A stretch of 64,000 nt of DNA from an uncultured Thermoleophilaceae bacterium (GTDB lineage Bacteria > Actinomycetota > Thermoleophilia > Solirubrobacterales > JACPNS01): assembly GCA_964455545.1 (NCBI GenBank), contig CAYVWQ010000005.1:24005-88004 (forward strand). The letters are read 5' to 3'. A model generated the notes under the pieces. It searched no databases. It was given only the letters and a program-made list of their open reading frames with translations, and was not told where the DNA came from. A program made the position numbers and the translations under genes. The stretch's first letter is position 1; the number at the start of each line of letters is the position of its first letter. This document shows positions 3,714-58,530 of this stretch, piece after piece.

Positions 3714-5102
3714 CTACTTGCCGGAATTGCCGCGGCCGTTGGCGGCGCCGCCGCCCGAGGCGTTGTCGCCGCCCGAGCCGTTGCCGCCGCCGGAGCTGTT
3801 GCCGCCGGATCCGCCCGATTGATCGCCGCCGGATGAGTTCTGGCCGGCGGATTCGCTGCGGCCGGATGAGTTCGAACCCGACGAACTGCCGCCGTTTGAC
3901 CTGGTCGAGGCGCTCTGAGACTTCGAGGACGAATTGCCGCGGCCGTTGCCCTTCGCGGCGGCGCGGCGCTCGGCGGCGGCCTTCTTCTTGGCGGCAGCCC
4001 TGCGCTTTGCCTTGGCGGCCTTGCGCTTGGCTTTGGCCTTCGCCTTCGCGCGCTTTTCCGCCGCTCGTGCGCGAGCTCGGGCTTTGAGCGCCTCTGGATT
4101 GCCGGCGAGCCCTTCGGCAGCGGCCGACTCGGCGGACTTTCCAGCGCTTGAACCGTTCACCGAAGCCGTCTTCTCGGCGGCGGGCTCACCGCTCTTCCCG
4201 ACGATCTCCTCGCCGGCGACGACACCTCCGGTGCCGACGGCCGCGACGACCAGGACCGTGGCGGCGACCTTTCCGGCTACCGCTACGACGCCAGCTCCGC
4301 CGGCCGTCGCCGCGACTCCACCGGCAGCGGTGCCGCCTGCAACTGCGCCTCCGGCAGCGGCTCCTGCGCCCGCGCTTGCGGCTGCTCCCGTCGCAGCTGC
4401 GGCGGATGCCTTGCCGGCCCCGACCCATGTGATCGCGGTGATCGGCGCGGCGGCGGCGAGCTTTCGCTTCAGCTGCTTGCCGCGGATCCCGTTCGCGTCG
4501 GCCGCCGTCGTGACGGTCGCGCGCCCTCGCTTGATCAACTGGCGCGCACTTTCGGGTGTCGTCTCGAGCGTGTCGGCGATCTCGTCGACCGACAGGCCAC
4601 CCAGCTCGCGCATGACCAGGGCCTCGCGCTGCCGTTCGGGGAGTGAATTCATCGCCGTGACGAGCCACGCGAGTTCGGCGCGGCGATCGACCACCGACTG
4701 GAAGCTGACGACGGTCGCCGGCTCGTCCCGCTCGGTCGCGTCATCAAGCGACAAAGTTCGTTGGCGCATTCCGCGGATGTGGTCAAAGGTGTGGTTGCGG
4801 GCGATCCTGAACAGCCACGCCTTGAAGGAGCCATCGTCGTGCCGCGCGCCGAGATTGGCGTATGCCTTCTGGAAGATTTCCTGCGTCAGATCCTCGGCGT
4901 CGTCGACGTTGGCGCCGCGTCCGAGCAGGTGATAGACGAACGCGAAGATGTTCTGGCGGTATCGCGCGTGCAGGGTCGCGAATGCGTCCTCGTTGCCGCG
5001 GGCCGCGAGAGAGCAGAGCACCCGGTCCGGTTGCACGGACAGCATGCGGTTTGCGACCGCTGAGTGCAGCGGACGCGCGTCTGTTCTGGGTGAAGCTTCC
5101 AT
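3714..5102 (-). CDS. ECF-type sigma-70 family factor with fused C-terminal membrane anchor and low-complexity tail (sigma paralog 1)
   Basis: 462 aa. N-terminal ~200 aa has sigma region 2 (FAFVYHLLGRGANVDDAEDLTQEIFQKAY, WLFRIARNHTFDHIR) and region 4 (LPERQREALVMRELGGLSVDEIADTL...ARQLIKRGR). A Gly/Ala-rich hydrophobic stretch follows (VAATVLVVAAVGTGGVVAG), then a Lys/Ala-rich and Ser/Gly/Asn-rich tail. Confidence 0.85.
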   Translation of the reverse strand: MEASPRTDARPLHSAVANRMLSVQPDRVLCSLAARGNEDAFATLHARYRQNIFAFVYHLLGRGANVDDAEDLTQEIFQKAYANLGARHDDGSFKAWLFRIARNHTFDHIRGMRQRTLSLDDATERDEPATVVSFQSVVDRRAELAWLVTAMNSLPERQREALVMRELGGLSVDEIADTLETTPESARQLIKRGRATVTTAADANGIRGKQLKRKLAAAAPITAITWVGAGKASAAAATGAAASAGAGAAAGGAVAGGTAAGGVAATAGGAGVVAVAGKVAATVLVVAAVGTGGVVAGEEIVGKSGEPAAEKTASVNGSSAGKSAESAAAEGLAGNPEALKARARARAAEKRAKAKAKAKRKAAKAKRRAAAKKKAAAERRAAAKGNGRGNSSSKSQSASTRSNGGSSSGSNSSGRSESAGQNSSGGDQSGGSGGNSSGGGNGSGGDNASGGGAANGRGNSGK

Positions 5103-5221: not shown

Positions 5222-5830
5222 ATGAACCTCAAGGCCAAGAAAATCACGATTCTGCTCACTCTCGTAATGCTTGTGTTCGCGGTGGTCGCGGCGCAGGCGT
5301 CCGCGGCTCCGAAGGACCGCAACAAGAACGGCATTCCCGACGCCTGGGAGAAGGCGCACGGAATTTCGCTCAAGAAGGACCGGGGCAACCGTGACGCGGA
5401 CGGAGACGGCGCGCGCAACCGCTGCGAGTACCAGGCCAAGACTGACCCGAACAACGCCGACAGCGACGCCGACCTGATCCCTGACGGCGACGAGGACACG
5501 GACGGAGACGGCGCCACCAACCGCGCCGAGTCAAATCTGCGCTCGAACTGCGGCAGGGCGAACAGCCACCTGCAGATCCGTCGCGCGACCGTGACGTCAT
5601 TCGCAGAAGGCGTCCTGACTCTGACGGTCCGTGGTGGCGGCACCGTGACCGCTCCGGTCTCGAGTTCGCTCAAGTGCGCCGTGAAGAAGTCAGGCGCTTC
5701 AAAAACGTCGAACGGCAAGGCCGACAGCAAAACGGCCGCATGCATCACCGCTGACCTGGTCAGCGGAACCGCCGTTCACAACGCCCGAACGAAGTCGGGC
5801 AAGTTCGCCGCAATCACTCTGGTCAAGTAG
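5222..5830 (+). CDS. secreted DxDxDG (thrombospondin type-3-like) calcium-binding repeat protein (paralog 1)
   Basis: 202 aa. Signal peptide MNLKAKKITILLTLVMLVFAVVAAQASA. Repeats DADGDGARNRCE, DSDADLIPDGDE and DTDGDGATNRAE. Four Cys conserved with the 7375-8076 paralog. Confidence 0.75.
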   Translation: MNLKAKKITILLTLVMLVFAVVAAQASAAPKDRNKNGIPDAWEKAHGISLKKDRGNRDADGDGARNRCEYQAKTDPNNADSDADLIPDGDEDTDGDGATNRAESNLRSNCGRANSHLQIRRATVTSFAEGVLTLTVRGGGTVTAPVSSSLKCAVKKSGASKTSNGKADSKTAACITADLVSGTAVHNARTKSGKFAAITLVK

Positions 5831-5917: not shown

Positions 5918-7228
5918 TTAAGGGCCCGAGTCAACCCCCCCGGGCCCCGATTTGGTCCCAACACGACCGGCTCCGGAATCGGGCGAGCCCGATTCCGAGC
6001 CGGCGTCGCCGGTCTCCGAGCCCGAGCCGGACCCAGAACCACTGTGAGACCCGTCGTCTCGCGGTCGAGGCCCGCCATCTCGTGAACCCGAGCGTTCCGA
6101 TCCTTCGCGTTCGAACTGATCATCGCCTCTGAAGGTCGACCCGCGACGGCCGCCGCGGTCGTCCTGGCCCTCGGCCTCGGTCTCGCCGCCGCGACCGCGG
6201 CGGCCCTCGCTCGCCGCTCCCGATCCGCTGCCGCGATCTGGCCGCTTTGCGTCCTCGCCTTTCCCGCGCCGACTGCCGCCGGTGCGGTCGGCCACGTCGC
6301 GGATGACGGACTCGGCGGTCGTGGTGCCGGCGGGAACACGCGCGATCGGAGAGCCGGCCCTGTCCTGCGCGGCGGCAACGTCGGCGCTGTCGCTGGCAGG
6401 CGGCTTGGTGCGCTCGTGTTCGACGACGGCGGTCCCCCCTCCGACTGCGGCAACGGTCAGAAAAGTCGCCGCGACCTTCGCGAACGCCGCGCCGCCGCCG
6501 GCGGCAGCGCTCGCGGTCGCCGCGCCGCCGGTGAAAGTCATTCCGATACCGGCCGCGAGCGGCAGAACTGGCGCCGCCATCGCGAGATCGCGTCCCAGAT
6601 GCTTCTCGCGATAGCCATCTGCGGCCGCCGCTTCGGCGACCGAGCTGCGTCCGCGATTGATCAGCTTCTTCGTTGCCGAAACCGTGGTGTCGAGTTCGGC
6701 AGCGATCTCACGGTGTGAAAGCCCGCCCAACTCTCGCAGCAGCAGCGCTTCGCGCTGACGGTGCGGGAGCTCCGAGACCGTCGTGACAAGCCACGCGAGC
6801 TCGGCGCGCTGCTCGGCGCGGTCGTCCGTAGCGGCGCGGTGGTCGACGGCTTCGGTGGACATCTCTGCCTCGGCGTCGAGTGAACCGACCGGCCTGCGCG
6901 CGCGCATCACGTCGAACGTTCGATTGCGGGCGATCGCGAAGATCCAGTGCTTGAAGCTGCCCTCGAAGCCGCGTTCGCGAATCGCCGCGAACCCCTTCGT
7001 GAATGCTTCTTGTGCGATGTCTTCCGCGTCCTCGGAGCTCGCTCCCCTGCCCAGCAGGTGATAGACGAAGGCGAAGACGGGCTGGCGATAGCGCTCGTAG
7101 AGAACGTCAAAAGCGCTCGGGTTTCCGCGCGAGGCGAGGCGGCACAGCACCGGGTCAGGCTGTACGCGCAGGAAGCGGCTCGCCGCGGATCCTGCCGCGG
7201 GCGAGCTGTATGTGGGTGAAGCCTCCAA
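5918..7228 (-). CDS. ECF-type sigma-70 family factor with fused C-terminal membrane anchor and low-complexity tail (sigma paralog 2)
   Basis: The ORF is open to a TTG at 7282. The TTG at 7228 gives an N-terminus (L/M)EASPTYSS that aligns with MEASPRTD of paralog 1, is preceded by GGAG, and lies downstream of a promoter-like motif. Sigma regions 2 and 4 are conserved (FAFVYHLLGRGASSEDAEDIAQEAF; LPHRQREALLLRELGGLSHREIAAEL), followed by a hydrophobic Ala/Gly stretch and a Gly/Arg/Asp/Ser-rich tail. Confidence 0.8.
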   Translation of the reverse strand: MEASPTYSSPAAGSAASRFLRVQPDPVLCRLASRGNPSAFDVLYERYRQPVFAFVYHLLGRGASSEDAEDIAQEAFTKGFAAIRERGFEGSFKHWIFAIARNRTFDVMRARRPVGSLDAEAEMSTEAVDHRAATDDRAEQRAELAWLVTTVSELPHRQREALLLRELGGLSHREIAAELDTTVSATKKLINRGRSSVAEAAAADGYREKHLGRDLAMAAPVLPLAAGIGMTFTGGAATASAAAGGGAAFAKVAATFLTVAAVGGGTAVVEHERTKPPASDSADVAAAQDRAGSPIARVPAGTTTAESVIRDVADRTGGSRRGKGEDAKRPDRGSGSGAASEGRRGRGGETEAEGQDDRGGRRGSTFRGDDQFEREGSERSGSRDGGPRPRDDGSHSGSGSGSGSETGDAGSESGSPDSGAGRVGTKSGPGGVDSGP

Positions 7229-7250
7229 GAAGTCGCTCTCCAGACATTCA

Positions 7251-7276
7251 AGACGTTTCGACGGCGAGAAAGTCCC
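7251..7276 (-). promoter_or_regulatory. candidate ECF-like promoter GGGAC-N16-CGTCT upstream of sigma paralog 2
   Basis: Minus strand reads GGGACtttctcgccgtcgaaaCGTCT (7276->7251), 23 nt upstream of the TTG at 7228. Confidence 0.4.
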
Positions 7277-7314
7277 ACACAACCCTGAGAATTCCCTGAG
7301 ATGCGTCCAGCCGC

Positions 7315-7374: not shown

Positions 7375-8076
7375 ATGCGACACAAGATCAAGTTTCAGTT
7401 GCTGGCGATCCTCGCTTTGGCCCTCGCCGGGATGGCGATCGGGCTCAGCCAGGCGTCGGCGCACGGAGGTGGCCACGGCGGCCGCATCGTCGACAGCGAC
7501 GGTGACGGCGCCAGCGACAAGTGCGAGGCCCGTGCAGGCACGTCGTCGAGCGACACTGACAGCGACGACAACGGCGTCGTCGACGGCCTCGAGGACACCG
7601 ACGGAGACGGCGCAAACAACGCGGCCGAGTCGGTCCTGCGCACCAACTGCAACCGCGCGAACACGCGCTGGAAGCGAATTCGCCGCGCCGAGGTCGAGAG
7701 CTACACGGACGGCGTGCTGACACTTTCGATCGGCAAGAACGGCGGCCTGCTCTCGGCACCGGTCAGCTCCCGCGTGATCTGCGAGATCGACGACTCAAGC
7801 GACAGCAGTGACGACGACTCCACCGCCAGCATCGCCCGACACGGCGAAGACGAGCCCGGAGATGACCGCGGCGGTGAACGTGGCGGCGACAGCGGTGGCG
7901 ACGACGGTGGCCAGCGCGGCGACCGCCCGTTCGGGCGCTTCGACGGCGACGACGAGGACGACACCGTTGCGTGCGTCACAGGGGACATCGTTGCCGGCGC
8001 CGAAGTCCGCTCCGCGAAGATCAAGAGCGGCAAGTTCGTCCGCATTCACCTCGCGGACCCCGAAGACTCCGAGTAG
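7375..8076 (+). CDS. secreted DxDxDG (thrombospondin type-3-like) calcium-binding repeat protein (paralog 2)
   Basis: 233 aa. Signal peptide MRHKIKFQLLAILALALAGMAIGLSQASA. Repeats DSDGDGASDKCE, DTDSDDNGVVDGLE and DTDGDGANNAAE. C-terminal domain is collinear with paralog 1 (GVLTL...APVSS...C...AC.T.D.V...KSGKF). Confidence 0.75.
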   Translation: MRHKIKFQLLAILALALAGMAIGLSQASAHGGGHGGRIVDSDGDGASDKCEARAGTSSSDTDSDDNGVVDGLEDTDGDGANNAAESVLRTNCNRANTRWKRIRRAEVESYTDGVLTLSIGKNGGLLSAPVSSRVICEIDDSSDSSDDDSTASIARHGEDEPGDDRGGERGGDSGGDDGGQRGDRPFGRFDGDDEDDTVACVTGDIVAGAEVRSAKIKSGKFVRIHLADPEDSE

Positions 8077-9687: not shown

Positions 9688-10917
9688 TCAGCGACCTGCC
9701 AGCGCGCCGCTGACGCTGTTGACTGTTTCGCCGGCCGTGCTCACGACCGTCCCGGCGGTGTCGCCGACGGCCTCGCCAAGCGGCTTCTCGCCGTTCAGGG
9801 CGCCGCCCACGTCTTCGACGATCTCGCCCGGGAGGTCTGCGACAGGTTGTAAGGGCGATTCCGGTTCGCTCGTGTCTTTGCTCGGGGTCGCCGCCTGCGA
9901 CTCATCGGCCGCAGGATCCGCCGTCGGCTCAGTCCGGGTGGGAGAGCTGCCAGACGGTTTGGGCAGCGGCTTGCGCCGCTCGGCAACAAAATCGTCGCGG
10001 TTCTGCCGCGGAGAAGACTGCTTCGGCCTTTGCCTCTCTGGGCGTGCACTGCTGCTCACCGTGTGACCGGGGAGCCCTGCGGCCGGTTCTGGCTTCGCGG
10101 GCTCGTCCGCTCTGGCTTGCTTCTGACCAATCGTTCCTGCCGCACCGGCGAAGAGCAAAACGCTCGCGAGGGCTGCGGCGAGTTTCGCGGACACGATCGC
10201 CCCGCCGGTACCGGCTCCCGTGACCGCGACCGCCCCGGCCCCCAAACCGCCGATCGGAAGAATGGGCGCCGCTTCAAGCAACCCGCGGCGCAGGGAACCC
10301 GGAGCGCCGACGTCATCGGCCGCGGCCCGACGAACGCCGTCTCGTCCGCGGCCGATCAGCTGCCGCACCGAGCCCGGCGACGTACGCATCGTCTCGGCGA
10401 TCGACCCGTAGCTCAGGCCGCCGAGCTCGCGCAGCAGCAGCGCGCTCCTTTGGCGCTCTGGAAGTTCTGTGATCGCTGCCACCAGCCACTCGAGATCGGC
10501 GCGCACCTCGGCCGCAGCGACAGGCTCGTCGGAGCTTCGGGCTTGCGGTGTTGAAGCCGCCTCCTGTGATTCCAGCTCAACGGTCTCGGTCGGCGTTGCG
10601 CGCATGAGGTCGATCGCACGATTTCGCGCGATCACGAAAAGCCACTGCTTGAAGGATCCGTCGAAGTCTTGCGAGCGGACCGAGGCAAACGCACGAGCGA
10701 ACGCGTCCTGCACGACATCCTCGGTGTCTTCACGCCGGTGTCGGCCGCCGAGCATGTGGAAGACGAACGCCGAGAGCTGGCGGTGGTACCGGCGATGCAG
10801 CTCCTCGAAGGCGTGCTCGTTCCCCCACCGGCCGGCGCGGCAGAGCATCGAATCGGTCTGGACCGCCCAGACCTTCGCGCGCGGGACCGCGGCGCGACTG
10901 GAGGAGTCGATTGCCAT
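9688..10917 (-). CDS. ECF-type sigma-70 family factor with fused C-terminal membrane anchor and Pro/Ser-rich tail (sigma paralog 3)
   Basis: 409 aa. Sigma regions 2 and 4 (FVFHMLGGRHRREDTEDVVQDAF; LPERQRSALLLRELGGLSYGSIAETM), then LEAAPILPIGGLGAG...LAAALASVLLFAGAAG hydrophobic segments and a disordered tail. Confidence 0.85.
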   Translation of the reverse strand: MAIDSSSRAAVPRAKVWAVQTDSMLCRAGRWGNEHAFEELHRRYHRQLSAFVFHMLGGRHRREDTEDVVQDAFARAFASVRSQDFDGSFKQWLFVIARNRAIDLMRATPTETVELESQEAASTPQARSSDEPVAAAEVRADLEWLVAAITELPERQRSALLLRELGGLSYGSIAETMRTSPGSVRQLIGRGRDGVRRAAADDVGAPGSLRRGLLEAAPILPIGGLGAGAVAVTGAGTGGAIVSAKLAAALASVLLFAGAAGTIGQKQARADEPAKPEPAAGLPGHTVSSSARPERQRPKQSSPRQNRDDFVAERRKPLPKPSGSSPTRTEPTADPAADESQAATPSKDTSEPESPLQPVADLPGEIVEDVGGALNGEKPLGEAVGDTAGTVVSTAGETVNSVSGALAGR

Positions 10918-11174: not shown

Positions 11175-12134
11175 TCAGAGCTCGGCGCGGCGTCGCAGGA
11201 TCTCCCTCGCGGCGCTTCCCGGGTCGAGCTTCCGTTCTACGACTTCGTCGAGCAACGCCTGGACAGCGGCGTCCTCGGCGATCGACTGCTCCAGCTCCGA
11301 ACGGAGGCTGATCGTGGCGAGCTCCAGCACTTCGTTGCGAAGATTGCGGCGGCGTCGCTCAGCGAGCGTGCCCTGCTCGGTGATGTGGGCACGATGTGCG
11401 TCGATCGCGTCGATCAGCTTGTCGATTCCGATGTCGTGCGCTGCCTGGGTCTGAATCACCGGCGGCGTCCAACCGTCGTCGGCGTGACCGAGCGCGAGCA
11501 CGCCCTTGATCTCGCGCACGAGTGTGTCCGTCATCGGGTGGTCGGCCTTGTTGACGACGATCACGTCGGGTATCTCCATCACACCGGCCTTCAGCGCCTG
11601 CACCGAGTCGCCACTTCCCGGCATCAGCGCGAGCACAATCGTGTCGGCGTGGTCGATCACGTCAATCTCGGCCTGCCCGACGCCGACCGTTTCGATCAGG
11701 ACGTTGTCGCGGCCGGCGGCGTCCATCAGCAGGGCGGCCTGCAGGGTCGCCTCCGAGAGGCCTCCGAGCGCGCCACGGTTGGCCATTGAACGGATGAACA
11801 CGCCCGGGTCGAGGAAATGCTCGGTCAGCCGGATGCGATCGCCGAGCAGCGCGCCTTGCGTGAACGGACTCGAAGGATCGATACTGAGCACTGCGATCGT
11901 CTCGTCCCGGGCCCGCAGGTGCTTTGCCATCACTCCGATCAGCGTCGACTTGCCGACCCCGGGAGGTCCCGTGAGACCGACCATCTTCGCCCTCCCGGTC
12001 TGCGGGTAGACCTCTTTGACCAGCTCCCAGCCGGTGGGGTCGTTGTTCTCGACGAGTGAGATCGCTCGCGCGAGTGCACGCTTGTCGCCTTCGACTAGGC
12101 GGCCTGCGAGGTCCTGTGCGGTCGAGGTGGCCAT
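11175..12134 (-). CDS. meaB: methylmalonyl-CoA mutase-associated GTPase MeaB/ArgK
   Basis: 319 aa. P-loop GPPGVGKST, DVIVVNKADH (NKxD) and overall ArgK/MeaB layout. Confidence 0.9.
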   Translation of the reverse strand: MATSTAQDLAGRLVEGDKRALARAISLVENNDPTGWELVKEVYPQTGRAKMVGLTGPPGVGKSTLIGVMAKHLRARDETIAVLSIDPSSPFTQGALLGDRIRLTEHFLDPGVFIRSMANRGALGGLSEATLQAALLMDAAGRDNVLIETVGVGQAEIDVIDHADTIVLALMPGSGDSVQALKAGVMEIPDVIVVNKADHPMTDTLVREIKGVLALGHADDGWTPPVIQTQAAHDIGIDKLIDAIDAHRAHITEQGTLAERRRRNLRNEVLELATISLRSELEQSIAEDAAVQALLDEVVERKLDPGSAAREILRRRAEL

Positions 12135-12143: not shown

Positions 12144-12878
12144 ATGGTATGCGCAGCGCCGGTCCTAGAGTTCCCGCCGATGAATCCCGGCGACGAGCAG
12201 CCGATCGTGATGGAATCCCCGGCGCCGCTGCGCGGCGGACCGCTGACGCTGCTGCGTTTCATGATCAAGAACCGCCTGTTTCGCGCGCGTTATCTCAAGA
12301 GCTACGCGCGGATGTTCTGGCACCGCGTGGTGCGCCGCCGCGCCCACGGCAAGAAGATCCACACGGACGGGCTGTGCTTCATCGGCAAGGATGTGGCAAT
12401 CGAGATCGGCCCGCTCGCTCACGTGTACCTCGAGCGTTGGAGCTGGGTCGGCAACCGCACGAAGCTGCGCGCACACGGCGGCTTCATCCGGATCGGCAGC
12501 AAATCGGTACTCGGCGAGGAGATCACCTTCAGCACCTACGAGGAGATCTCGATCGGACGCGAGTGCGTGATCGCCGACCGCGCGATGTTCATCGACTTCG
12601 ACCACATCACGGCCGACCCGGAGCAGGCGATCCGAAAGCAAGGCCTCTACAGCAAGCCGGTGCGAGTGGGGAACAACGTCTGGATCGGGTATGGCGCATG
12701 CATCCTGCGCGGCGTCACGATCGGTGACGGAGCTGTGATCGGCACGAACGCCGTGGTCACGAAGGACGTCCCGCCGAACGCGATCGTCGGCGGCGTGCCG
12801 GCGAGGGTGCTGCGGATGCGCGACGAGCCGAAGCGTCTGACCTGGAAGCCCGACCCGCCGCCGAAGCACCTGCGATGA
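12144..12878 (+). CDS. left-handed beta-helix (hexapeptide-repeat) acyl/acetyltransferase
   Basis: 244 aa. Hexapeptide repeats VGNNVWIGYGACILRGVTIGDGAVIGTNAVVTKDVPPNAIVGGVPARV. Exact start uncertain. Confidence 0.8.
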   Translation: MVCAAPVLEFPPMNPGDEQPIVMESPAPLRGGPLTLLRFMIKNRLFRARYLKSYARMFWHRVVRRRAHGKKIHTDGLCFIGKDVAIEIGPLAHVYLERWSWVGNRTKLRAHGGFIRIGSKSVLGEEITFSTYEEISIGRECVIADRAMFIDFDHITADPEQAIRKQGLYSKPVRVGNNVWIGYGACILRGVTIGDGAVIGTNAVVTKDVPPNAIVGGVPARVLRMRDEPKRLTWKPDPPPKHLR

Positions 12879-12904
12879 AGGAGCAGAATCGGTAAGTTGC
12901 GGTA

Positions 12905-13774
12905 ATGGCTGACAAGGTCTACCTCGACAACTCCGAGGCCACCGAGGCCTGGAACACGATCCTTTTCGACCGCTTCCGCGACTACCGGCACATCTTCGTC
13001 ACCGGCCTCGCTCAGTTCAGCGACGCCGCGCTCTCGATGCACCCACCGCAGGTCGGCGACCGCTGCATCGACATCGGCTGCGGATTCGGTGACACCACAC
13101 GCGAGCTCGCCGCGATCGCCGGGCCGACCGGGCACGCGACCGGACTCGACGCCGCCGAACGTTTCATCGAGGCCTCCCGCGAGGAGTCGGCGGGAGTGGC
13201 GAACGTCGACTTCGTCGTCGCCGACGCCGAGCGGGAAGTGCCAGGCGGCCCCTACGACTACGTCTTCGCTCGCATGGGCACGATGTTCTTCGCAAACCCG
13301 GTCGCCGCGATGCGCAACGTGCACGCGGCGATGAAGCCGTGCGGCCGCCTCTGCATGATCGTCTGGCGGCGCAAGCTCGACAACGAGTGGATGTACCGCT
13401 CGGAAGAGGTGGTCGACCGCCACGTCGACAAGCCGGACCCGGAGGAGTCGGACGAGTTGACCTGCGGTCCCGGACCGTTCTCGATGGCGAACGCCGACAC
13501 CACCAGCGACGTGCTGCGCGCCGCCGGGTTCGGCGCGATCGCCTTCCATCGCCTCGACCGCTCGTTCGCGATCGGAAGTGACATCGACGAGCTGATCGAA
13601 GGCGCGTTCGCTCTCGGCCCTGCCGCCGAAACGATGCGCCTCGCCGGCGAGGACGGCGCGCGCCTCAGACCGTTGATCGAAGCCGACCTACGCGAGATCG
13701 CCGTCGACTATGAGCAGCCCGACGGCAGCTATGCCGCGCCGTATTCGGCGTGGGTGGTGACGGCCTCTTCGTAG
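12905..13774 (+). CDS. class I SAM-dependent methyltransferase
   Basis: 289 aa. SAM motif I CIDIGCGFGDTT. Confidence 0.85.
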   Translation: MADKVYLDNSEATEAWNTILFDRFRDYRHIFVTGLAQFSDAALSMHPPQVGDRCIDIGCGFGDTTRELAAIAGPTGHATGLDAAERFIEASREESAGVANVDFVVADAEREVPGGPYDYVFARMGTMFFANPVAAMRNVHAAMKPCGRLCMIVWRRKLDNEWMYRSEEVVDRHVDKPDPEESDELTCGPGPFSMANADTTSDVLRAAGFGAIAFHRLDRSFAIGSDIDELIEGAFALGPAAETMRLAGEDGARLRPLIEADLREIAVDYEQPDGSYAAPYSAWVVTASS

Positions 13775-14937
13775 AGCCCGAGCGTCTGGCGCGCGATGTC
13801 GAGCCAGTCGAAAGTGAGCACGTGTTCCGAGGCTTCTGCGATCAGGCGGCCGCGCAGCTGTTCGTCGGTCAGCACCTTCGCCGCCATGTCGGCGAGCGAG
13901 CCGGGGTCCTTCGCCTGGAAGCGCAGTCCGACTTTCTCGTTCGAAACGATCTCGCGCAGCCCACCGGTGTCGGCGACTATGCAGGGGCAGCCGCTCGCCA
14001 TCGCCTCGAGCGCGACGAGGCCGAACGGCTCGTAGATCGACGGGACGATCGTCAGGTCGGCGATGCGGTACAGCGAGTGCAACACGTCATCGCCGATCCA
14101 GCCCAGAAACGTGCCGTGCTCCTTCAATCCGAGCTCGGCGGCCTGCGCCTTCAGCTCCTCCTCGTGGGTCCCTGAGCCGGCGACTATGAAGCGGACGTTT
14201 CCGACCTCCTCGATCAGGCCCGGCAGCGCCTCGAGCGCGAACTGAAACCCCTTCTCGTAGACGAGCCGTCCCACCAACAGCACGAGCTGTTCGTCAGGCT
14301 GCGCGAAGTTCGCGCGCAGCTCGTCGAGGTCGGCGACCGGTTGAAGGTCCTTTGGGTCGATCCCGTTCGGGATGACAGCGACGTCTTCCTCCTCGAGGCC
14401 GTATATGTCCGCAATGTGCTCGCGCATGTAAGAAGAGCAGGCGATCACGGCGTCGGCGCGGTTGGTGACCCATTTCTCGATCCCGTGAATGTGGCTCTGC
14501 GGATGCTTGTCGACCCAGCCCTGGTGGCGACCGAACTCAGTCGCGTGGATCGTCATCACGAGCGGTCGGTCGAAGCGGCGGGCGAGGTGGTCGCAGGCCG
14601 AGGCAACGAGCCAGTCGTGGCCGTGGATCACGTCAAAATCGATCTCGTCGCCGAGCGCGACACCGGCGCTGAGCATGTCGGTGTTCATGTGCTCGATCCA
14701 GGTGACGAACTCGCCGAGGTCGCGCGGCCGCGCCGGTTCGCGCACGCGGTGGACATGCACGCCGCCCAGTATCTGCTCCTCGCTGCCTGCACCGTCGCCG
14801 CGCGTGAGCACGTGGACCTCGACACCGAGGTCGACGAGGTTCTCGGCCAGCTTGCGGACGTGCCGGGCCAGACCGCCCTCGATGAGCGGCGGATACTCCC
14901 AGGAGAGGATCAGGGTGCTGAACGTGGTGTCAGGCAT
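13729..14937 (-). CDS. GT4-family (GT-B) glycosyltransferase, alpha-glucan/glycogen-synthase-like
   Basis: 402 aa. N-terminal EYPPLIEGGLARHV and C-terminal EPFGLVALEAMASGCPCIV (E-x7-E). Its start overlaps the upstream GH57 gene by 8 nt. Confidence 0.9.
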   Translation of the reverse strand: MPDTTFSTLILSWEYPPLIEGGLARHVRKLAENLVDLGVEVHVLTRGDGAGSEEQILGGVHVHRVREPARPRDLGEFVTWIEHMNTDMLSAGVALGDEIDFDVIHGHDWLVASACDHLARRFDRPLVMTIHATEFGRHQGWVDKHPQSHIHGIEKWVTNRADAVIACSSYMREHIADIYGLEEEDVAVIPNGIDPKDLQPVADLDELRANFAQPDEQLVLLVGRLVYEKGFQFALEALPGLIEEVGNVRFIVAGSGTHEEELKAQAAELGLKEHGTFLGWIGDDVLHSLYRIADLTIVPSIYEPFGLVALEAMASGCPCIVADTGGLREIVSNEKVGLRFQAKDPGSLADMAAKVLTDEQLRGRLIAEASEHVLTFDWLDIARQTLGLYEEAVTTHAEYGAA

Positions 14938-16399
14938 CGTGGGGGATCACGGCGAGGAGATCCTCGGAGCTCAACAGGGGGGCCAGCCCGCCTACCGCTT
15001 CCGGGTGATCTGTGTCCGCGCCGGGCTCGGATTCTCGCACAGACGAGATCGCGCCCTCAAACCCTTCGAGATGTCCGGCGAACCGCTCGTCCGGGTAGTC
15101 GCCGGCCTGCTCGCGATCGGCCATGAACGCCCAGTCGCTCGACTGCATCGCCATTAGCTCGCGCGCGGCGCGGCGGGCGGCCGGGCCGGATGCGTCGCCC
15201 AGGCGCAGCGCCTGTTCGAGCTCGAGCTCGGCAGCACGCGACTGCCAGGCGAACTCGGCGACCTTCGGAGCGTCCCAGGTGGCCAGCGACTTTTCTCGGC
15301 CCCAACTCGAACGCGCGAGCGGGCGTCGCACCGGCTCCGCGGCGCTGACGGCCTGTTCGAGCGTCACCAGTTCGACGCCGTAATCCGGGGCGAGCCGCAG
15401 AAGCTCGGCGAGCCACCACGGGCCCTCGTACCACCAGTGCCCGAACAGCTCGGTGTCAGCGGCGAAGACGATCAGCCCTTCGCGACCGCGTTCGCTCGCG
15501 TAGACCTCGAGACGCGCCGCGACGCTGCGGAGGAACGCTGCCGCGTGCGCGTGTGCCTGAGCTTTCGCGGCTCCCGGGTTCCAGCCCTCGCCGGCGTTGT
15601 TCCAGGGCAGCAGGTCGTGGATCGTGCGCGCGAAGCTGCTGCGGTAGGTGGCCATCGCCGGGTACGCGCCGGCGTCCCACACCTGTCCGATGCTGTGCCA
15701 GTCGATCGGCAGCGCGATGTTGCCGGCCGGGGTGCGCACTGGCTCCAGGTTGTCGAGCGACTCGAGCCCGAGGGCAGCGGACTGATCAACGCAGAAGTAC
15801 TCGACTTCGTTGCGCGCCAGAGCGGCATCGGTGCCCGCGTCGTAGGCGCACTCCGGTAGCCAAGCCCCGCGGGCAGGCCCGAACCGCCGTTCGTGTGACC
15901 GGCGACCTGTGCGGAGCTGCAGATCGAGGCCGAAGTCGCTGGCGAGCAGCGGCAGAATCGGGTGAGTCGCGGGGCCGCCGATCAGCTCCACCCCCGTGTC
16001 AGCGAGGTCATCGAACATCCGGTTCAGGTCGCGACCGAACTCCTCGTTGAAGCGGCGCGCCGCCGTCCGGTGATCATCGAGCTGGAGCGCGAGCGCCGCG
16101 TGGAGGTCCGGGCGCTCGACGGTGACGAACGCGGCCATGTCCTCGCCGAACACGTACTCCCTGCCGTCGTTCACCCAGGCGACGTACCGGTCGCCCGCGG
16201 CGCCACGCATCGCCTCGAACTGGTCGGCCAGCACCGGCGTGATCCCGATCGTCACCGGGTGACCGCGAACGGTGTCCGCAACTCGCAGATAGCACTCGCT
16301 GACGACCTCCCACAGCCACTGTTCGCCGAACGGCCACACACCGCGGTCCTCGACGTACGGCATGTGCGAGTGCAGGACTATCGCCAGCCGGCCTGCCAT
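14930..16399 (-). CDS. GH57-family glycoside hydrolase (branching-enzyme-like, DUF1957 type)
   Basis: 489 aa. N-terminal LAIVLHSHMPYVEDRGVWPFGEQWLWE is typical of GH57 alpha-glucan branching enzymes. Confidence 0.85.
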   Translation of the reverse strand: MAGRLAIVLHSHMPYVEDRGVWPFGEQWLWEVVSECYLRVADTVRGHPVTIGITPVLADQFEAMRGAAGDRYVAWVNDGREYVFGEDMAAFVTVERPDLHAALALQLDDHRTAARRFNEEFGRDLNRMFDDLADTGVELIGGPATHPILPLLASDFGLDLQLRTGRRSHERRFGPARGAWLPECAYDAGTDAALARNEVEYFCVDQSAALGLESLDNLEPVRTPAGNIALPIDWHSIGQVWDAGAYPAMATYRSSFARTIHDLLPWNNAGEGWNPGAAKAQAHAHAAAFLRSVAARLEVYASERGREGLIVFAADTELFGHWWYEGPWWLAELLRLAPDYGVELVTLEQAVSAAEPVRRPLARSSWGREKSLATWDAPKVAEFAWQSRAAELELEQALRLGDASGPAARRAARELMAMQSSDWAFMADREQAGDYPDERFAGHLEGFEGAISSVRESEPGADTDHPEAVGGLAPLLSSEDLLAVIPHDA

Positions 16400-16406
16400 G
16401 GAATCG

Positions 16407-17207
16407 CTAGCCCTTCGGACTACGGCAGACGGCCACGAAGTCGAGCGCGTCGGTCAGCAGCTCGTCGCTCGGCCCGGGAAAGATCTCGAAGTCGCGTTCA
16501 CTGATCGCCGGCGTGAAGCGGTCGTAGAACAGCTTCGAGATGCGCAGGCCCTTGTGGACAGCGTCCCAGCCGAGGTTCTCGATCGCATACTGATGCCAAC
16601 GCAGCTTGCCGGCGTGACGCACGCCGAAGATCTGCACGTCCTCAAACACCTCACGGCAGAGCTCGCGGAACTCCCCGGGCCGGTACTCCTTGACGTGCCA
16701 GGGATTCTCGGACTTCTCGGCGCCTTCAGGCGCGAGCGTCAACAGGTTTGGCGTGGATACGTAGGCGACGCCTTCCGGCTTCATGATCGAGGCGAAGTGC
16801 CGCAGGACGCCGGCCGGATCCTGCACGTGTTCGATCGTCTGCAGGAAGACGACGCAGTCGACCGGCGGCTCCTCGCGGTAGGTCTCGATCAGATCCCGGG
16901 CGATCGTCACCTTGTCGTTCTCGTACTTCGCCTTTGCGTGAGCATGCGCCTCGGGGTTGGCGTCGACGCCGGTCACGTGCTCGGCCTCGCGCGACAGCAC
17001 GGCACTGCCGTAGCCCTCGCCGCAGGCCATGTCAATCACCCGCATGCCCTTCACCCGCCGCGCGATCCAGTCGTAGACGACGAGGTGACGGCGGTACCAG
17101 TAGTTCTCCTCGGGCAGGTCCGGGAGCGTGCGCTCGCCGGTCAGCTCTAGCGGCGGGACGCCTGTCGGCTGATCCACCTGTACGTATTTCTGGGCTGCCG
17201 GGGGCAC
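16407..17207 (-). CDS. class I SAM-dependent methyltransferase
   Basis: 266 aa. SAM motif VIDMACGEGYGS. GTG start. Its stop is 7 nt upstream of the GH57 gene start. Confidence 0.85.
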   Translation of the reverse strand: MPPAAQKYVQVDQPTGVPPLELTGERTLPDLPEENYWYRRHLVVYDWIARRVKGMRVIDMACGEGYGSAVLSREAEHVTGVDANPEAHAHAKAKYENDKVTIARDLIETYREEPPVDCVVFLQTIEHVQDPAGVLRHFASIMKPEGVAYVSTPNLLTLAPEGAEKSENPWHVKEYRPGEFRELCREVFEDVQIFGVRHAGKLRWHQYAIENLGWDAVHKGLRISKLFYDRFTPAISERDFEIFPGPSDELLTDALDFVAVCRSPKG

Positions 17208-17233
17208 GGCGCCGCACTATAGTTGCGCCCCCC

Positions 17234-18172
17234 ATGGCCCTGACCGCAGACCAGATCCGCGAAGCCAACGTCGCCTACCACGACGCCGCCGCCGACGAGT
17301 ACGACGCCAAGTGGGGCATCGACTACGGCGAGCTCGGCATGAGCCAGGTGAGACTGAAGACCGACAAGGTCCTCGGCAAAGACGCGCACTTCCCGCGCGC
17401 GCTCGAGATCGGTTCGGGCACCGGCTATCTGTCGCTGAACATGATGCAGAACGGTCTGATCGACGAAGTCGTCTGCACCGACATTTCGCAAGGCATGCTC
17501 GACGTCGTCGAGGCGTCGGCCAAGCGGCTCGGCTTTGAGCGGCGCGTGACCACGCTTCACACCGAGGCCGAGGACTTCCCGTTCGAGGACGAGTCGTTCG
17601 ACCTCGTCTTCGGCCACGCGATCCTCCACCATCTGCCACACCTGCAGAAGTCGTTCGACGAGTTCTTCCGCGTGCTGAAGCCCGGCGGAAAGATCTTCTT
17701 CGCCGGCGAGCCGTCGGCGCGCGGCGACAGGATCGCCCGCTATCCGAAGCAGGTCGGCCACCGGCTCTCGCCGCTCTGGCGCAAGGCGCTCGGCGTCAAG
17801 CAGCTCTCGGTCCAGGAGGCCGAGAAGGTCGCCGCCGGCGAACGCTCACAGGAGTACATCGACGGGCATTCGGTCGAGCACCTTGTCGATGTCCACGCTT
17901 TCGTGCCGAGCGACCTCAAAGAGTTCGCCGAGATCGCCGGCTTCGACGACGTCGACGTGATCGGCGAGGAGCTCTCGGCCAACTGGTTCGGCTGGTTCAA
18001 CCGCGCACTCGAGGCCGACGGCGTCCCCGAGGACATCCCGTGGGGCTGGCGCCAGTACGCCTACCGCGGCTACCTCGGCTTTCAGAAGTTCGACCGGCTC
18101 GCCCTCGAAGGGCGCCTGCCGGCGAGCATCTTCTACAACCTGATGATCGGGGCCGAGAAGCCCGCGGGCTAG
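17234..18172 (+). CDS. class I SAM-dependent methyltransferase
   Basis: The ORF is open from 16934, but the first 100 codons are Arg/Pro-rich and antisense to the neighbouring gene. The ATG at 17234 gives MALTADQIREANVAYHD. SAM motif ALEIGSGTGYLS. Confidence 0.85.
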   Translation: MALTADQIREANVAYHDAAADEYDAKWGIDYGELGMSQVRLKTDKVLGKDAHFPRALEIGSGTGYLSLNMMQNGLIDEVVCTDISQGMLDVVEASAKRLGFERRVTTLHTEAEDFPFEDESFDLVFGHAILHHLPHLQKSFDEFFRVLKPGGKIFFAGEPSARGDRIARYPKQVGHRLSPLWRKALGVKQLSVQEAEKVAAGERSQEYIDGHSVEHLVDVHAFVPSDLKEFAEIAGFDDVDVIGEELSANWFGWFNRALEADGVPEDIPWGWRQYAYRGYLGFQKFDRLALEGRLPASIFYNLMIGAEKPAG

Positions 18173-40720: not shown

Positions 40721-41514
40721 CTGTTCTCCCGTGGTGCGATCGTGACCTCGTCACCGGGTTCGATCAGCTCGACCCTGGCGTCGGAAGACGACTGCTCGAC
40801 GAACGAGCGGAACCTCCGGGGAGGGTCTACGAGCAGCTCCGGGCGGCGTTTTGCCATACCCGCCGGAAGATATCCGCCCCAGTGGACCGGTACGGCGACG
40901 CGTGGATCCAGCAACTCGACGGCCTTCGCGGCACGCTCGGGATCGAGGTGTCCGGTGCCGAGCTTCGGCCCCCAGCCCCAGACGGGAACGAGCGCGACGT
41001 CGAGTTCGGGCGCAAGTCCCGCCATCTCGTCGTACAGATCGGTGTCGCCTGCGTAGTAGACGGTCTGTCCCCCCTCGACGACGAACCCGATCGTCTCGGC
41101 CGGTGGGTTCCACGGCATCCGCTTGCCGCCGTGATCGGCATGGACCGCGCGGATGCCCAGTCCGCTCGCCTCGATCTCGTCGCCGTCGCTGACCCCGACG
41201 ACATTCCCGAACCCGAGACGCTTCATCAACTTGACGGAGTCCGACGGAACGACCGCGGTGGCCGACTTGTCGACCAGCTGGAGCGAGCGTTTGTCGAGGT
41301 GGTCGAGGTGACCGTGTGAGATCAGCAACACGTCCGGCCGCCCCCAACGCTCGATGTCGACGAGTGGTGCGTGGCGCTGCAGGTGGAGCAGGCTGCTGCG
41401 GAAGAGCGGGTCGATCAGCACACGTGCGCCCTCGAGCTCCACCAGCAACGTGGAATGGCCGGCGAACGCCACCGAAATTTCACCCGAATCTCTCACCGCC
41501 AGATTGTGACGCAA
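40717..41514 (-). CDS. MBL-fold metallo-hydrolase
   Basis: 265 aa. Metal motif LLISHGHLDHLD. Non-ATG start; the exact start is uncertain. Confidence 0.8.
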   Translation of the reverse strand: MRHNLAVRDSGEISVAFAGHSTLLVELEGARVLIDPLFRSSLLHLQRHAPLVDIERWGRPDVLLISHGHLDHLDKRSLQLVDKSATAVVPSDSVKLMKRLGFGNVVGVSDGDEIEASGLGIRAVHADHGGKRMPWNPPAETIGFVVEGGQTVYYAGDTDLYDEMAGLAPELDVALVPVWGWGPKLGTGHLDPERAAKAVELLDPRVAVPVHWGGYLPAGMAKRRPELLVDPPRRFRSFVEQSSSDARVELIEPGDEVTIAPRENS

Positions 41515-41531
41515 TGCGTAAGATGCCTCAC

Positions 41532-49555: not shown

Positions 49556-50910
49556 GCGAACGTGAACACTTTGACTCGATCGTGATCGGCGCCGGCCCGG
49601 CCGGCGAGGTCGTCGCCGGCGAACTTGCTGCGGGCGGCCAGAAGGTCGCGGTGGTCGAGAAGGAACGGGTGGCGGGCGAGTGCTCGTTCTGGGCCTGTAT
49701 GCCGTCGAAGACCCTGCTGCGACCGTCCGAGGTGCTGATGAGCGCCACCCGCGTCCCCGGTGCGGCCGAGGCCGTAGGCGGAAAGGTTGACGTGAAGGCG
49801 GCTCTGGCGTGGCGCGACCGCATGGTCAGCAACTGGGACGACTCCGGTTACGTGACCTGGCTGACAGACCGCGGCATCGAGCTGGTCCGCGGCGCCGGAC
49901 GGCTCGTCGGCGACGGCGGCGTGGACGTCGAGGACCGACGCCTCGCGGCAGACAACATCGTGATCGCGACCGGCTCGGTGCCGGTCGTCCCGCCGATCGA
50001 AGGACTCGCAGAAGCGCGCTTCTGGACCAACCGCGAAGTCACGGGCGCCAAAGAGATCCCCGAACGACTGTTGATCCTTGGCGGCGGAGTGGTCGGCGTC
50101 GAGATGGCGCAGGCCTACGCGCGGTTCGGCTGCTCGGTCGCGCTGATCGAAGCCGCCGAGAACATCCTCCCCGGCGAGGATCCGCGGGTCGGAGACTCGA
50201 TCGCCGCATCGCTGAAAGACGACGGCGTCGCTATTCACACCGGCGTCACGGCGACGCGGGTGCACGGCGGCGAGCACGAACAGCGCGTCGAGCTCAGCGA
50301 CGGAACCGAGCTGCGCGGCAACGAGTTGCTCGTGGCGACCGGACGCCGGCCGGCCACCGACGGCCTCGGCCTCGAATCGCTACCGGTCAAGCTCGAGCGC
50401 GGCGCGATCGAGGTCGACAAACGACTGCGGGCGGCAGACGGGATCTACGCGATCGGCGACGCAAACGGCATTCATCTCACCACGCACACGGGTAAGTACC
50501 AGGCGCGGGTGGCGGCCGCCGAGATCCTCGGACACGGAACCGACGCCGACTACTCGGCGATCCCGCGCGTCGTCTACACCGACCCGAATGCCTTCGGCGT
50601 CGGTCAGACCGGCGGCGCCGTCACCGGAACCGCAGGCGTCGCCGAGACCGCGGCCTCTTCGATCGTGCGCGTCGACTGGCGCAACGCACACGACGAGTTC
50701 CTCACGCTCGTCGGCGACGACAACGGACGGATCATCGGCGCCTTCGCCGTCGGCCCCCACGCGGCGGACTGGATGGGACAGGCGATCCTCGCGGTCAAGG
50801 CGAAGCTGGACGCGGCGACACTCGCCGCCACGATCCAGCCGTTTCCGTCGATGTCAGAGATCTTCACGCTCGCGGCGCGCGACCTGCTCGGCAACCTCGG
50901 TCAGAAGTAG
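49552..50910 (+). CDS. class I pyridine nucleotide-disulfide oxidoreductase (FAD-dependent; dihydrolipoyl-dehydrogenase/mercuric-reductase-like)
   Basis: 452 aa. IVIGAGPAGEV, redox CxxxxC GECSFWACMPSK, second Rossmann LILGGGVVGVE, and AIGDANG. Confidence 0.85.
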   Translation: MSEREHFDSIVIGAGPAGEVVAGELAAGGQKVAVVEKERVAGECSFWACMPSKTLLRPSEVLMSATRVPGAAEAVGGKVDVKAALAWRDRMVSNWDDSGYVTWLTDRGIELVRGAGRLVGDGGVDVEDRRLAADNIVIATGSVPVVPPIEGLAEARFWTNREVTGAKEIPERLLILGGGVVGVEMAQAYARFGCSVALIEAAENILPGEDPRVGDSIAASLKDDGVAIHTGVTATRVHGGEHEQRVELSDGTELRGNELLVATGRRPATDGLGLESLPVKLERGAIEVDKRLRAADGIYAIGDANGIHLTTHTGKYQARVAAAEILGHGTDADYSAIPRVVYTDPNAFGVGQTGGAVTGTAGVAETAASSIVRVDWRNAHDEFLTLVGDDNGRIIGAFAVGPHAADWMGQAILAVKAKLDAATLAATIQPFPSMSEIFTLAARDLLGNLGQK

Positions 50911-58448: not shown

Positions 58449-58530
58449 CTCGACCATTTAAACTCCATCCCACTCGTGCCGGGCATCGCGGCACAACTCT
58501 CCCGCGAACCGCGTGCAAAGGATTTCACGG

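Follow-up and report, generated by a model that had tools for sequence, protein, structure and literature searches.

The 64-kb stretch of DNA analyzed here (the window) derives from a metagenome-assembled genome of a soil actinobacterium in the order Solirubrobacterales, class Thermoleophilia, a group that has received little study, and carries a compact six-gene locus predicted to act on sugars. On the plus strand, a gene for a hexapeptide (left-handed beta-helix) sugar O-acyltransferase (12144–12878, 244 aa) is followed, 26 nt downstream, by an accessory class I SAM methyltransferase gene (MT_A, 12905–13774, 289 aa). The latter is convergent with, and overlaps by 46 nt, a minus-strand run formed by a class I SAM methyltransferase (MT_B, 16407–17207, 266 aa), a GH57 alpha-glucan transglycosylase of the branching-enzyme type (14930–16399, 489 aa) and a GT4 retaining glucosyltransferase (13729–14937, 402 aa). 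MT_B lies upstream of GH57 across a 7-nt gap (16400–16406), and the GH57 stop and GT4 start overlap by 8 nt (14930–14937). Divergent from this run, and separated from it by a 26-bp intergenic region read directly from the sequence (17208–17233), is a third class I SAM methyltransferase with a C-terminal extension (MT_C, 17234–18172, plus strand, 312 aa). ORF and Pfam checks agree with the preliminary description as regards the six ORFs, their positions and domains, the gap and the overlap. The exact starts of all six ORFs also coincide with gene calls on one public NCBI contig (163,770 bp); the true start of the acyltransferase may be Met13, at 12180. GC3 values of 0.81–0.89 across all six ORFs are those expected of real genes at a genome GC of 67%, and the three methyltransferase domains are recognized by Pfam with E values of 1e-15 to 4e-24. 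According to Pfam, the window encodes no GT5 glycogen synthase, GH13 branching enzyme or ADP-glucose pyrophosphorylase.

Polymethylated polysaccharides are regarded as peculiar to mycobacteria and a few of their relatives. Reports of MGLP, the methylglucose lipopolysaccharide with which mycobacteria bind fatty acids, are limited to Mycobacterium and a few Nocardia (PMC4555173; PMC9883506), and in mycobacteria Rv3032 and Rv3030 have been genetically implicated in its elongation and 6-O-methylation (PMC4555173; PMC2674218). The host class considered here differs from mycobacteria; no MGLP-like polymer has been reported from it, and among the papers listed in the library searched, none names these Thermoleophilia genera together with polymethylated polysaccharides. 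A resemblance to the MGLP locus had been proposed in the preliminary description, and was assessed against the actual M. tuberculosis locus sequence (L005). Five of the six proteins match five genes within a single 10.4-kb stretch of M. tuberculosis (BLASTP E values of 1e-40 to about 5e-66), with 31–37% identity over near full length, and the sole match of each in that locus is the expected gene (Rv3038c in the case of MT_C). The resemblance thus holds for five genes and fails for MT_A, for which BLASTP recovered no match in the M. tuberculosis locus and which is an extra gene here. Reverse tblastn searches of the whole window with the M. tuberculosis proteins returned the same genes and no others. 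In phmmer searches, four of the five proteins (GT4, the acyltransferase, MT_B and MT_C) scored far higher against their mycobacterial partner than against any solved relative.

Both loci have the same core order on one strand (methyltransferase, GH57, GT4), as had been noted beforehand, with a hexapeptide acyltransferase and a UbiE-type methyltransferase nearby and the GH57 catalytic residues kept. They differ in that the M. tuberculosis genes Rv3037c, Rv3032A, Rv3033, Rv3035 and Rv3036c have no counterpart here, in the length of GH57 (around 30 residues shorter in the window) and in the position of the Rv3038c-like methyltransferase gene, directly adjoining and divergent here, yet 5.6 kb off in M. 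tuberculosis.

MT_B is 35% identical to Rv3030 over 258 of its 266 aa (BLASTP, E 1e-40) and reaches 130 bits against this partner in phmmer, as opposed to 45 bits against the best solved structure. Family-specific motifs are common to both proteins (LTGERTxP...ENYWxRRH, QxIEH, (S/T)TPN, NP(F/W)H and a C-terminal (D)F...LD), the N- and C-terminal ones falling outside the SAM fold. Among 1.84 billion representatives, the Mycobacteriaceae Rv3030 cluster (P0381) ranks in the top 150 for MT_B, and the MT_B family contains a Mycobacteriaceae cluster that is 75% identical to Rv3030. Orthology to Rv3030, which had been named beforehand as a test of the resemblance, is therefore supported both by membership of the same narrow subfamily and by the motifs outside the SAM fold. 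Few bacterial families are commoner than class I methyltransferases, GT4 enzymes and hexapeptide transferases, and the Pfam/NCBIfam matches of these genes are all generic, so that the mycobacterial likeness could in principle be a chance juxtaposition. This is contradicted by the five specific full-length best matches in one M. tuberculosis region with equal core order, by the narrowness of the MT_B family (164 representatives at E <= 1e-30 out of 19,825 methyltransferase matches at 1e-3) and by the repetition of the linkage in more than 100 independent loci. We consider chance juxtaposition to be effectively refuted on these grounds, with a negligible probability left to it.

Orthology to Rv3037c had likewise been named beforehand as a test, but MT_C does not correspond to that gene. 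Rv3037c, the methyltransferase listed for the MGLP cluster in the literature, is a THUMP-like enzyme; no window protein matches it at E 1e-3, and none of 80 metagenome loci has a match to it at E 1e-8. The homologue of MT_C is Rv3038c (37% identity over 306 aa, E 5e-60, BLASTP), with conservation along the full length, including an N-terminal YHDxxAxxYDxKWxI and a C-terminal VDxHxFxPxDL...FYN. The phmmer score of MT_C against Rv3038c is 179 bits, compared with 49 bits for the best solved structure (3bus); the D-glucose O-methyltransferase 6uv6 is among its top solved-structure matches. MT_A, recognized by Pfam as Methyltransf_31/25/11, has generic nearest solved structures, the best being phosphoethanolamine N-methyltransferases (49 bits). 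Outside the window it was seen only in L002, at 66% identity, and in L006, as a fragment where that locus is cut off; the remaining 79 genome loci and all 80 metagenome loci lack it. From this distribution, MT_A is regarded as a lineage-specific addition of the immediate clade of the window, outside the conserved module. No mycobacterial methyltransferase occurs among the solved-structure matches of MT_A, MT_B or MT_C.

The GT4 protein (Pfam Glycos_transf_1, 7e-44; Glyco_transf_4, 1e-33; also Glyco_transf_5) is 36% identical over 394 aa to Rv3032 (BLASTP, E 9e-66), the alpha-1,4-glucosyltransferase of MGLP elongation. Its phmmer score against Rv3032 is 212 bits, followed by MshA (119), mycobacterial GlgM (91) and PimA (90), and with 117 bits it does not reach the cut-off of the glgA model TIGR02095 (328). 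The acyltransferase (Pfam Hexapep, 6e-10) is 37% identical over 203 aa to Rv3034c (BLASTP, E 6e-41), bearing out the earlier comparison of this gene near the core with Rv3034c. The two proteins have in common a DFDH motif and a non-repeat N-terminal domain, and the phmmer score against Rv3034c is 130 bits versus 78 for the best solved structure, a maltose O-acetyltransferase; of the solved relatives, maltose and galactoside O-acetyltransferases are the closest.

The GH57 protein (Pfam Glyco_hydro_57, 4e-19; BE_C, 9e-10) keeps the catalytic Glu183 (WLPECAY) and Asp315 (DTELFGHWW) found in Rv3031 and in solved branching enzymes. It is 31% identical to Rv3031 (BLASTP, E 1e-48), with a score of 150 bits, equal to that of the Thermus branching enzyme (150) and close to that of the Pyrococcus enzyme (157). 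Since Rv3031 is no closer than true branching enzymes, its orthology to GH57 is a matter of position and synteny only. With the GH57 branching enzymes of Thermus thermophilus (TT1467), Thermococcus kodakarensis and Pyrococcus horikoshii (1ufa, 3n8t, 5wu7) it has in common a catalytic domain followed by a C-terminal BE_C and the motifs HxHxP, WLPE(C/M)AY and D(T/A)ELFGHWW (E 1e-42 to 7e-45 for the solved enzymes). Only the two ends align, however, the center of the protein (residues 188–270, approximately) being around 40 residues shorter, and the scores against the NCBIfam branching-enzyme models fall below both cut-offs (NF041566, 187.5 bits against 920; NF041133, 169.3 against 1000). A further difference from those enzymes is that the GH57 protein here is invariably accompanied by an Rv3030-type methyltransferase. 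Its equal likeness to true branching enzymes, together with public annotations of these genes as 1,4-alpha-glucan branching enzyme and glycogen synthase, could indicate that the glucan pathway of GH57 and GT4 is of the ordinary glycogen-like type, with no methylation, and that the methyltransferases and the acyltransferase are mere neighbors with unrelated substrates. GH57 genes that adjoin GT4 genes of unclear function are known in some archaea (PMC11046441), which would fit such a pathway.

The occurrence of the genes in other genomes bears on this alternative. Among 80 Thermoleophilia species loci, MT_C was found in 75, GH57 in 72, the acyltransferase in 61 and GT4 in 42, GT4 being absent from the other 38. 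MT_B is followed by GH57 in 72 of the 80, and MT_C is divergent beside MT_B in 75. Within this class the whole neighborhood is syntenic, including FtsZ, GGT, an aminotransferase and MeaB, so that adjacency could be historical, as the glycogen-like reading would have it, and linkage inside Thermoleophilia, taken by itself, is weak evidence of common function. In all 15 divergent metagenomic loci with room to test it, however, an MT_B-type methyltransferase is again followed by GH57. These divergent lineages (36–46% identity, GC 0.49–0.72) include Candidatus Solincola sediminis, of the class Ca. Geothermincolia; eight of them have GT4 after GH57 (L086, L089, L090, L093, L095, L096, L139 and L140), three have the acyltransferase (L086, L089 and L090) and one, L090, has MT_C beside it. 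The linkage of the module is conserved across at least three classes of Actinomycetota. Divergent lineages also carry added module genes, encoding FAD amine-oxidase-like, GalT-like transferase and CoA-ligase-like proteins. The placement of an Rv3030-type methyltransferase gene immediately before GH57, in most cases only a few nucleotides away, seen in three actinobacterial classes as well as in lineages of GC 0.49 to 0.75 with different flanking genes, argues against mere neighborhood. So do the specific mycobacterial-locus counterparts of MT_B, MT_C and the acyltransferase and the genetic tie of Rv3030 to MGLP methylation in mycobacteria. An unmethylated glycogen-like pathway is considered quite improbable in the light of these observations.

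The locus shows gene-for-gene homology, over five genes, with that of M. tuberculosis. The explanation we favor, with moderate confidence, is that it represents the Thermoleophilia version of the mycobacterial MGLP module and makes a methylated, acylated alpha-glucan. Judging from the predicted enzymes, the product is probably cytoplasmic, an alpha-(1->4)-glucan or oligoglucan that carries some O-methyl and O-acyl groups. The Rv3032-like GT4 would lengthen an alpha-1,4-glucan from a nucleotide-glucose donor, and the Rv3031-like GH57 would carry out an alpha-1,6 transfer, as a branching or primer-forming step. MT_B (Rv3030-like) and MT_C (Rv3038c-like) would be responsible for SAM-dependent O-methylation of glucose units, with a possible further methylation by MT_A limited to the small clade of the window. 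The Rv3034c-like acyltransferase, of the maltose/galactoside O-acetyltransferase type, would transfer short acyl groups from acyl-CoA onto glucose hydroxyls. By analogy with MGLP, the product may bind long-chain fatty acyl chains. A similar logic is seen in the mycobacterial MMP cluster (MeT1, ManT, MeT3 and MmpH), which combines a GT4-type alpha-1,4-glycosyltransferase with SAM-dependent sugar O-methyltransferases and yields a cytoplasmic product (PMC9883506), but which builds on mannose rather than glucose and lacks GH57 and a hexapeptide acyltransferase; its dedicated hydrolase, MmpH, has no counterpart here.

A different methylated or acylated glucoside, with another architecture and role, could also be the product, be it a short oligoglucoside, a glycolipid head group or a modified compatible solute. 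The short GH57 center and its scores far below the branching-enzyme cut-offs, the lack of an Rv3037c counterpart and the genes added to the module in divergent lineages are all in keeping with such a compound, as is the absence of MGLP primer genes, no gpgS, gpgP, octT or ggH-type gene having been detected by Pfam among the 45 genes of the 64-kb window. In mycobacteria too, gpgS (Rv1208), gpgP (Rv2419c) and octT (Rv2418c) are unlinked to Rv3030-Rv3032. To our knowledge Thermoleophilia do not make mycolic acids, and hence the mycobacterial role need not apply in them. However, the set of four enzyme types characteristic of the mycobacterial module recurs as a group, GT4 is nearest to an alpha-1,4-glucan-elongating enzyme, and Pfam scans of the locus reported no domains for export, lipid carriers or membrane anchoring, making a glucoside of this other kind unlikely, if less so than the glycogen-like pathway.

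Because a Thermoleophilia bacterium carries the core of the locus gene for gene, polymers of the MGLP kind are probably, as far as gene content can tell, far more widespread than the few known genera. It is conceivable, though we hold it only tentatively, that the module, consisting of an Rv3030-type methyltransferase, GH57, GT4, an Rv3034c-type acyltransferase and an Rv3038c-type methyltransferase, is an ancient trait of Actinomycetota, shared by Thermoleophilia, Ca. Geothermincolia and further uncultured lineages not known to make mycolic acids, and that Rv3038c, not Rv3037c, is the conserved second MGLP methyltransferase. If so, polymethylated polysaccharides would be neither a speciality of mycobacteria nor bound up with the mycolate envelope. 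Cultured and non-pathogenic carriers, such as Conexibacter stalactiti KCTC 39840 and Patulibacter minatonensis DSM 18081, are organisms in which to seek these polymers. The module addresses MGLP steps without an assigned enzyme, namely branching or primer extension, a second methylation and short-chain acylation; no published biochemical function was found in the literature for Rv3031, Rv3034c or Rv3038c. As a comparative filter on the mycobacterial pathway genes, it supports Rv3034c and adds Rv3038c, but not Rv3037c.

The conservation of MT_C marks out Rv3038c as a partner of the mycobacterial locus that is conserved but has been overlooked. Rv3038c is predicted to be essential, and was reportedly recovered of late in a screen for oleic-acid resistance in M. 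tuberculosis. MGLP has been proposed to sequester fatty acyl chains, which offers a possible explanation for the sensitivity of rv3038c mutants to long-chain fatty acids.

The intergenic region between MT_B and MT_C (17208–17233) gave no match in a sigma-70 consensus scan. It holds a palindrome, ACTATAGT, at 17216–17223, which presents the -10-like hexamer TATAGT on both strands, 10 nt from the ATG at 17234 and 8 nt from the GTG at 17207. Gaps of 20–30 bp with overlapping two-strand TANNNT hexamers were seen in many of 74 related loci, and the palindrome may constitute a back-to-back promoter for leaderless or near-leaderless mRNAs.

The locus consists of six open reading frames: a hexapeptide acyltransferase (12144-12878, + strand, 244 aa; Pfam Hexapep), the methyltransferase MT_A (12905-13774, +, 289 aa), a glycosyltransferase carrying the Pfam GT4 domain pair (GT4; 13729-14937, -, 402 aa), a glycoside hydrolase with Pfam GH57 and BE_C domains (GH57; 14930-16399, -, 489 aa), and the methyltransferases MT_B (16407-17207, -, 266 aa) and MT_C (17234-18172, +, 312 aa), which like MT_A carry a Pfam class I methyltransferase domain. 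The layout in the preliminary description was borne out, including the 7 nt gap between MT_B and GH57 and the 8 nt overlap between GH57 and GT4. A public NCBI contig of 163,770 bp carries gene calls for all six with identical starts, and they show the high third-position GC typical of real genes at the window GC of 67%; NCBIfam gave only generic, sub-threshold matches to them. The closest matches of GH57 are proteins from MAGs labelled Solirubrobacterales, Thermoleophilaceae or Thermoleophilia, and the nearest named loci among the best 80 of a genome scan are Solirubrobacterales MAGs, which places the host in the Thermoleophilia, a deep branch of the Actinomycetota, and not in Mycobacterium, Nocardia or Streptomyces.

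A real M. tuberculosis contig with the methylglucose lipopolysaccharide (MGLP) locus, L005, was reached via the database entry P0121 ('transferase [Mycobacterium tuberculosis]'), a protein 100% identical to an Rv3032 sequence that served as a probe for retrieval only. Gene order and Pfam content of this contig agree with Rv3024c-Rv3042c, and its genes comprise Rv3030 (methyltransferase), Rv3031 (GH57), Rv3032 (GT4), Rv3034c (hexapeptide protein), Rv3037c (THUMP-like) and Rv3038c (UbiE-type methyltransferase). By BLASTP, GT4 matches Rv3032 (36% identity over 394 aa, E 9e-66), MT_C matches Rv3038c (37% over 306 aa, E 5e-60), GH57 matches Rv3031 (31% over 494 aa, E 1e-48), the acyltransferase matches Rv3034c (37% over 203 aa, E 6e-41) and MT_B matches Rv3030 (35% over 258 aa, E 1e-40). 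The reverse search, with the M. tuberculosis proteins against the six frames of the window, recovered the same five genes and no others. The MGLP-like six-gene cluster initially proposed therefore holds for five genes, including the Rv3030 counterpart, while MT_A, without a BLASTP match in L005, is a clade-specific accessory. The expected counterpart of Rv3037c was not found, as no window protein matched it by BLASTP against L005; judged by its sequence, the conserved second methyltransferase (MT_C) is of the Rv3038c rather than the Rv3037c type.

Resemblance of MT_B to Rv3030 goes beyond the SAM-binding fold, both proteins having the motifs LTGERTxP...ENYWxRRH (N-terminus), QxIEH, (S/T)TPN and NP(F/W)H, as well as (D)F...LD at the C-terminus. 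A search of 1.84 billion representatives gave MT_B 19,825 matches at 1e-3 and only 164 at 1e-30, and a Mycolicibacter/Mycobacterium methyltransferase representative, 75% identical to Rv3030, was among its best 150 matches. Conservation between MT_C and Rv3038c is full length and includes the C-terminal extension, some 150 residues long. The three window methyltransferases gave no mutual matches at 1e-5, and a solved-structure search found no structure close to any of them. A tRNA-Gly(CCC) called by ARAGORN inside the MT_C coding sequence (17359-17435, +) was discarded as a false positive, with no Rfam match at gathering score or at E <= 1.

Phmmer bit scores for the M. tuberculosis partners, placed on the same scale as the solved-structure search, favor the mycobacterial protein for GT4 (212 for Rv3032 vs 119 for MshA, 91 for mycobacterial GlgM and 90 for PimA), MT_C (179 for Rv3038c vs 49 for the best solved relative), MT_B (130 for Rv3030 vs 45) and the acyltransferase (130 for Rv3034c vs 78 for maltose O-acetyltransferase). 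GH57 scores 150 with Rv3031, vs 157 and 150 with the Pyrococcus and Thermus branching enzymes, and its correspondence to Rv3031 comes from position, not from sequence closeness. The GH57 scores could also be accommodated by a plain glycogen-like pathway in which the methyltransferases are bystanders, an interpretation considered distinctly improbable. The catalytic residues Glu183 (WLPECAY) and Asp315 (DTELFGHWW) are retained, as in Rv3031; in contrast to solved branching enzymes, GH57 has a shorter central segment, and it falls far under the cut-offs of the curated NCBIfam branching-enzyme models. The 45 window genes include no classical glycogen genes.

Conservation of the locus was assessed in the best 80 of at least 390 species yielded by a genome scan (one genome per species) with the MT_B-family alignment A1 as query. 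Nearly all of these 80 loci are labelled Thermoleophilia, with one Acetobacteraceae and a few assigned only to Actinomycetota; the cultured species Conexibacter stalactiti and Patulibacter minatonensis are among them. MT_C, divergent from MT_B, occurs in 75 of the 80 and GH57, following MT_B, in 72, with the acyltransferase in 61 and GT4 in 42; MT_A reached the count threshold in none, only an end fragment being found in locus L006. The entire neighbourhood (FtsZ, gamma-glutamyltranspeptidase and an aminotransferase among others) is syntenic in the class, so that linkage within Thermoleophilia alone is weak evidence of shared function. This applies to the MeaB/ArgK-type GTPase (11175-12134, -), present in 56/80 loci, which was rejected as a module member since its synteny is general and neither the divergent lineages nor the M. 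tuberculosis locus have it. MeaB is probably a neighbour of the module, although it might be linked to acyl-CoA supply. Encoded on the other strand, it begins 9 nt away from where the acyltransferase is annotated to start, and its position is the same in those 56 loci.

Like MT_A, a PhoX phosphatase gene and a BcGHD-family (PF10022) gene are confined to the immediate clade of the window, and both are absent from the window itself. The former sits between the methyltransferase and GH57 in the closest relatives of the window (L002, 8291-9802; L006, 8934-10403), and the latter shares 4 nt with the end of GT4 in L002 (12631-14259). Two apparent fusions in another locus (L003, 10001-12331 and 12345-15231), a 776-aa methyltransferase-GH57 protein (P0098) and a 723-aa 'GT4-MeaB fusion', are assembly frameshift artefacts: in P0098 the last 49 methyltransferase residues run on in another frame, and on its contig the out-of-frame methyltransferase end stops about 30 nt before GH57 and MeaB is also split. 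P0098, at first sight a sign that the two enzymes are functionally coupled, is therefore given no weight.

The best 80 loci of the genome scan, nearly all of them Thermoleophilia, are uninformative on other classes, and a second MT_B-family profile (A2), meant to recover names from other phyla, again gave Thermoleophilia as its best 120 matches. Given the weak evidence that linkage in syntenic genomes provides, metagenome contigs were scanned with a query headed by a divergent member of the family. The divergent lineages among them show 36-46% identity to both the window protein and Rv3030, have GC contents of 0.49-0.72 and carry other flanking genes. In each of the 15 divergent loci with room for it, the methyltransferase is followed by GH57; GT4 is also downstream in eight, the hexapeptide acyltransferase is found in three, and in one it is adjoined by an MT_C-type gene. 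One lineage is Candidatus Solincola sediminis, of the class Ca. Geothermincolia, and another clusters with an 'Actinomycetota bacterium' protein. The module therefore spans at least three Actinomycetota classes. Other genes were seen in these divergent loci: a gene resembling FAD amine oxidases, which immediately precedes the Rv3030-type methyltransferase in three loci (L086, 444-1775; L089, 4680-5969; L093, 3912-5231), a GalT-like nucleotidyltransferase gene adjoining the acyltransferase (L089, 10610-11602) and a CoA-ligase-like gene of the NDP-forming acyl-CoA synthetase type between GT4 and the acyltransferase (L090, 3934-5331).

Taken at the level of homology to the mycobacterial MGLP module, the locus appears reasonably likely to encode a cytoplasmic pathway in which the MGLP-homologous enzymes would produce an O-methylated, O-acylated alpha-1,4-glucan; everything past homology, including the glucan product, its size, methylated positions and primer, is prediction. 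The M. tuberculosis cluster has been described as Rv3030-Rv3037c, with Rv3032 as the elongating alpha-1,4-glucosyltransferase, Rv3030 and Rv3037c as putative methyltransferases, Rv3034c as putative acetyltransferase and Rv3031 as potential branching gene (PMC2674218); genetic evidence links Rv3032 and Rv3030 to elongation and 6-O-methylation (PMC4555173), and Rv3031 was without biochemical characterisation as of 2019 (PMC6629080). A related methylated glucoside of different structure is rather unlikely as the product. The 45 window genes encode no GT81 glucosyl-3-phosphoglycerate synthase and no GpgP or OctT type protein, an absence that is not decisive because mycobacterial primer genes are likewise unlinked to Rv3030-Rv3032 (PMC2674218).

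An MGLP-like glucan would be of a known kind, in a class, the Thermoleophilia, where such a system is so far undescribed: MGLP is reported from all mycobacteria examined and a few Nocardia strains (PMC4555173, PMC9883506), and in a literature search no paper was found to mention polymethylated polysaccharides together with Thermoleophilia genus names. Cultured Thermoleophilia are now open to direct chemical test, and the set of genes assigned to the mycobacterial pathway is more sharply drawn. Rv3038c (L005, 15782-16837), the counterpart of MT_C, may be an unrecognised MGLP gene. The literature searched mentions it solely as a gene whose function is unknown and which is predicted essential; it is part of the gene set for oleic-acid resistance in M. 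tuberculosis, and its disruption sensitises the bacterium to oleic acid (PMC13279779). The rv3038c oleate phenotype would fit a role of this type if MGLP, as has been proposed, buffers fatty acyl chains.

The divergent start codons of MT_B and MT_C are separated by 26 bp (17208-17233), within which a perfect palindrome, ACTATAGT (17216-17223), gives each strand a TATAGT -10-like hexamer; in many related loci the gap is 20-30 bp and contains overlapping TANNNT hexamers. This arrangement suggests predicted back-to-back promoters giving leaderless or near-leaderless mRNAs. A scan for sigma-70 promoters and terminators found nothing that exceeded background. Elsewhere in the window, Pfam at 1e-6 gave no match to four large ORFs whose GC3 is of coding type (27667-30249, -, 860 aa; 41316-43007, +, 563 aa; 50901-52853, -, 650 aa; 58513-61830, +, 1105 aa), and a 1276-aa ORF (44948-48778) matches solely a galactose-oxidase-like E-set domain. 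Three ECF-type sigma factors (3714-5102, 5918-7282 and 9688-10917, all -) have long C-terminal extensions, for totals of 409-462 aa, and two of the three each have a small bacterial-TSP3-repeat protein as partner (5222-5830 and 7375-8076, +).
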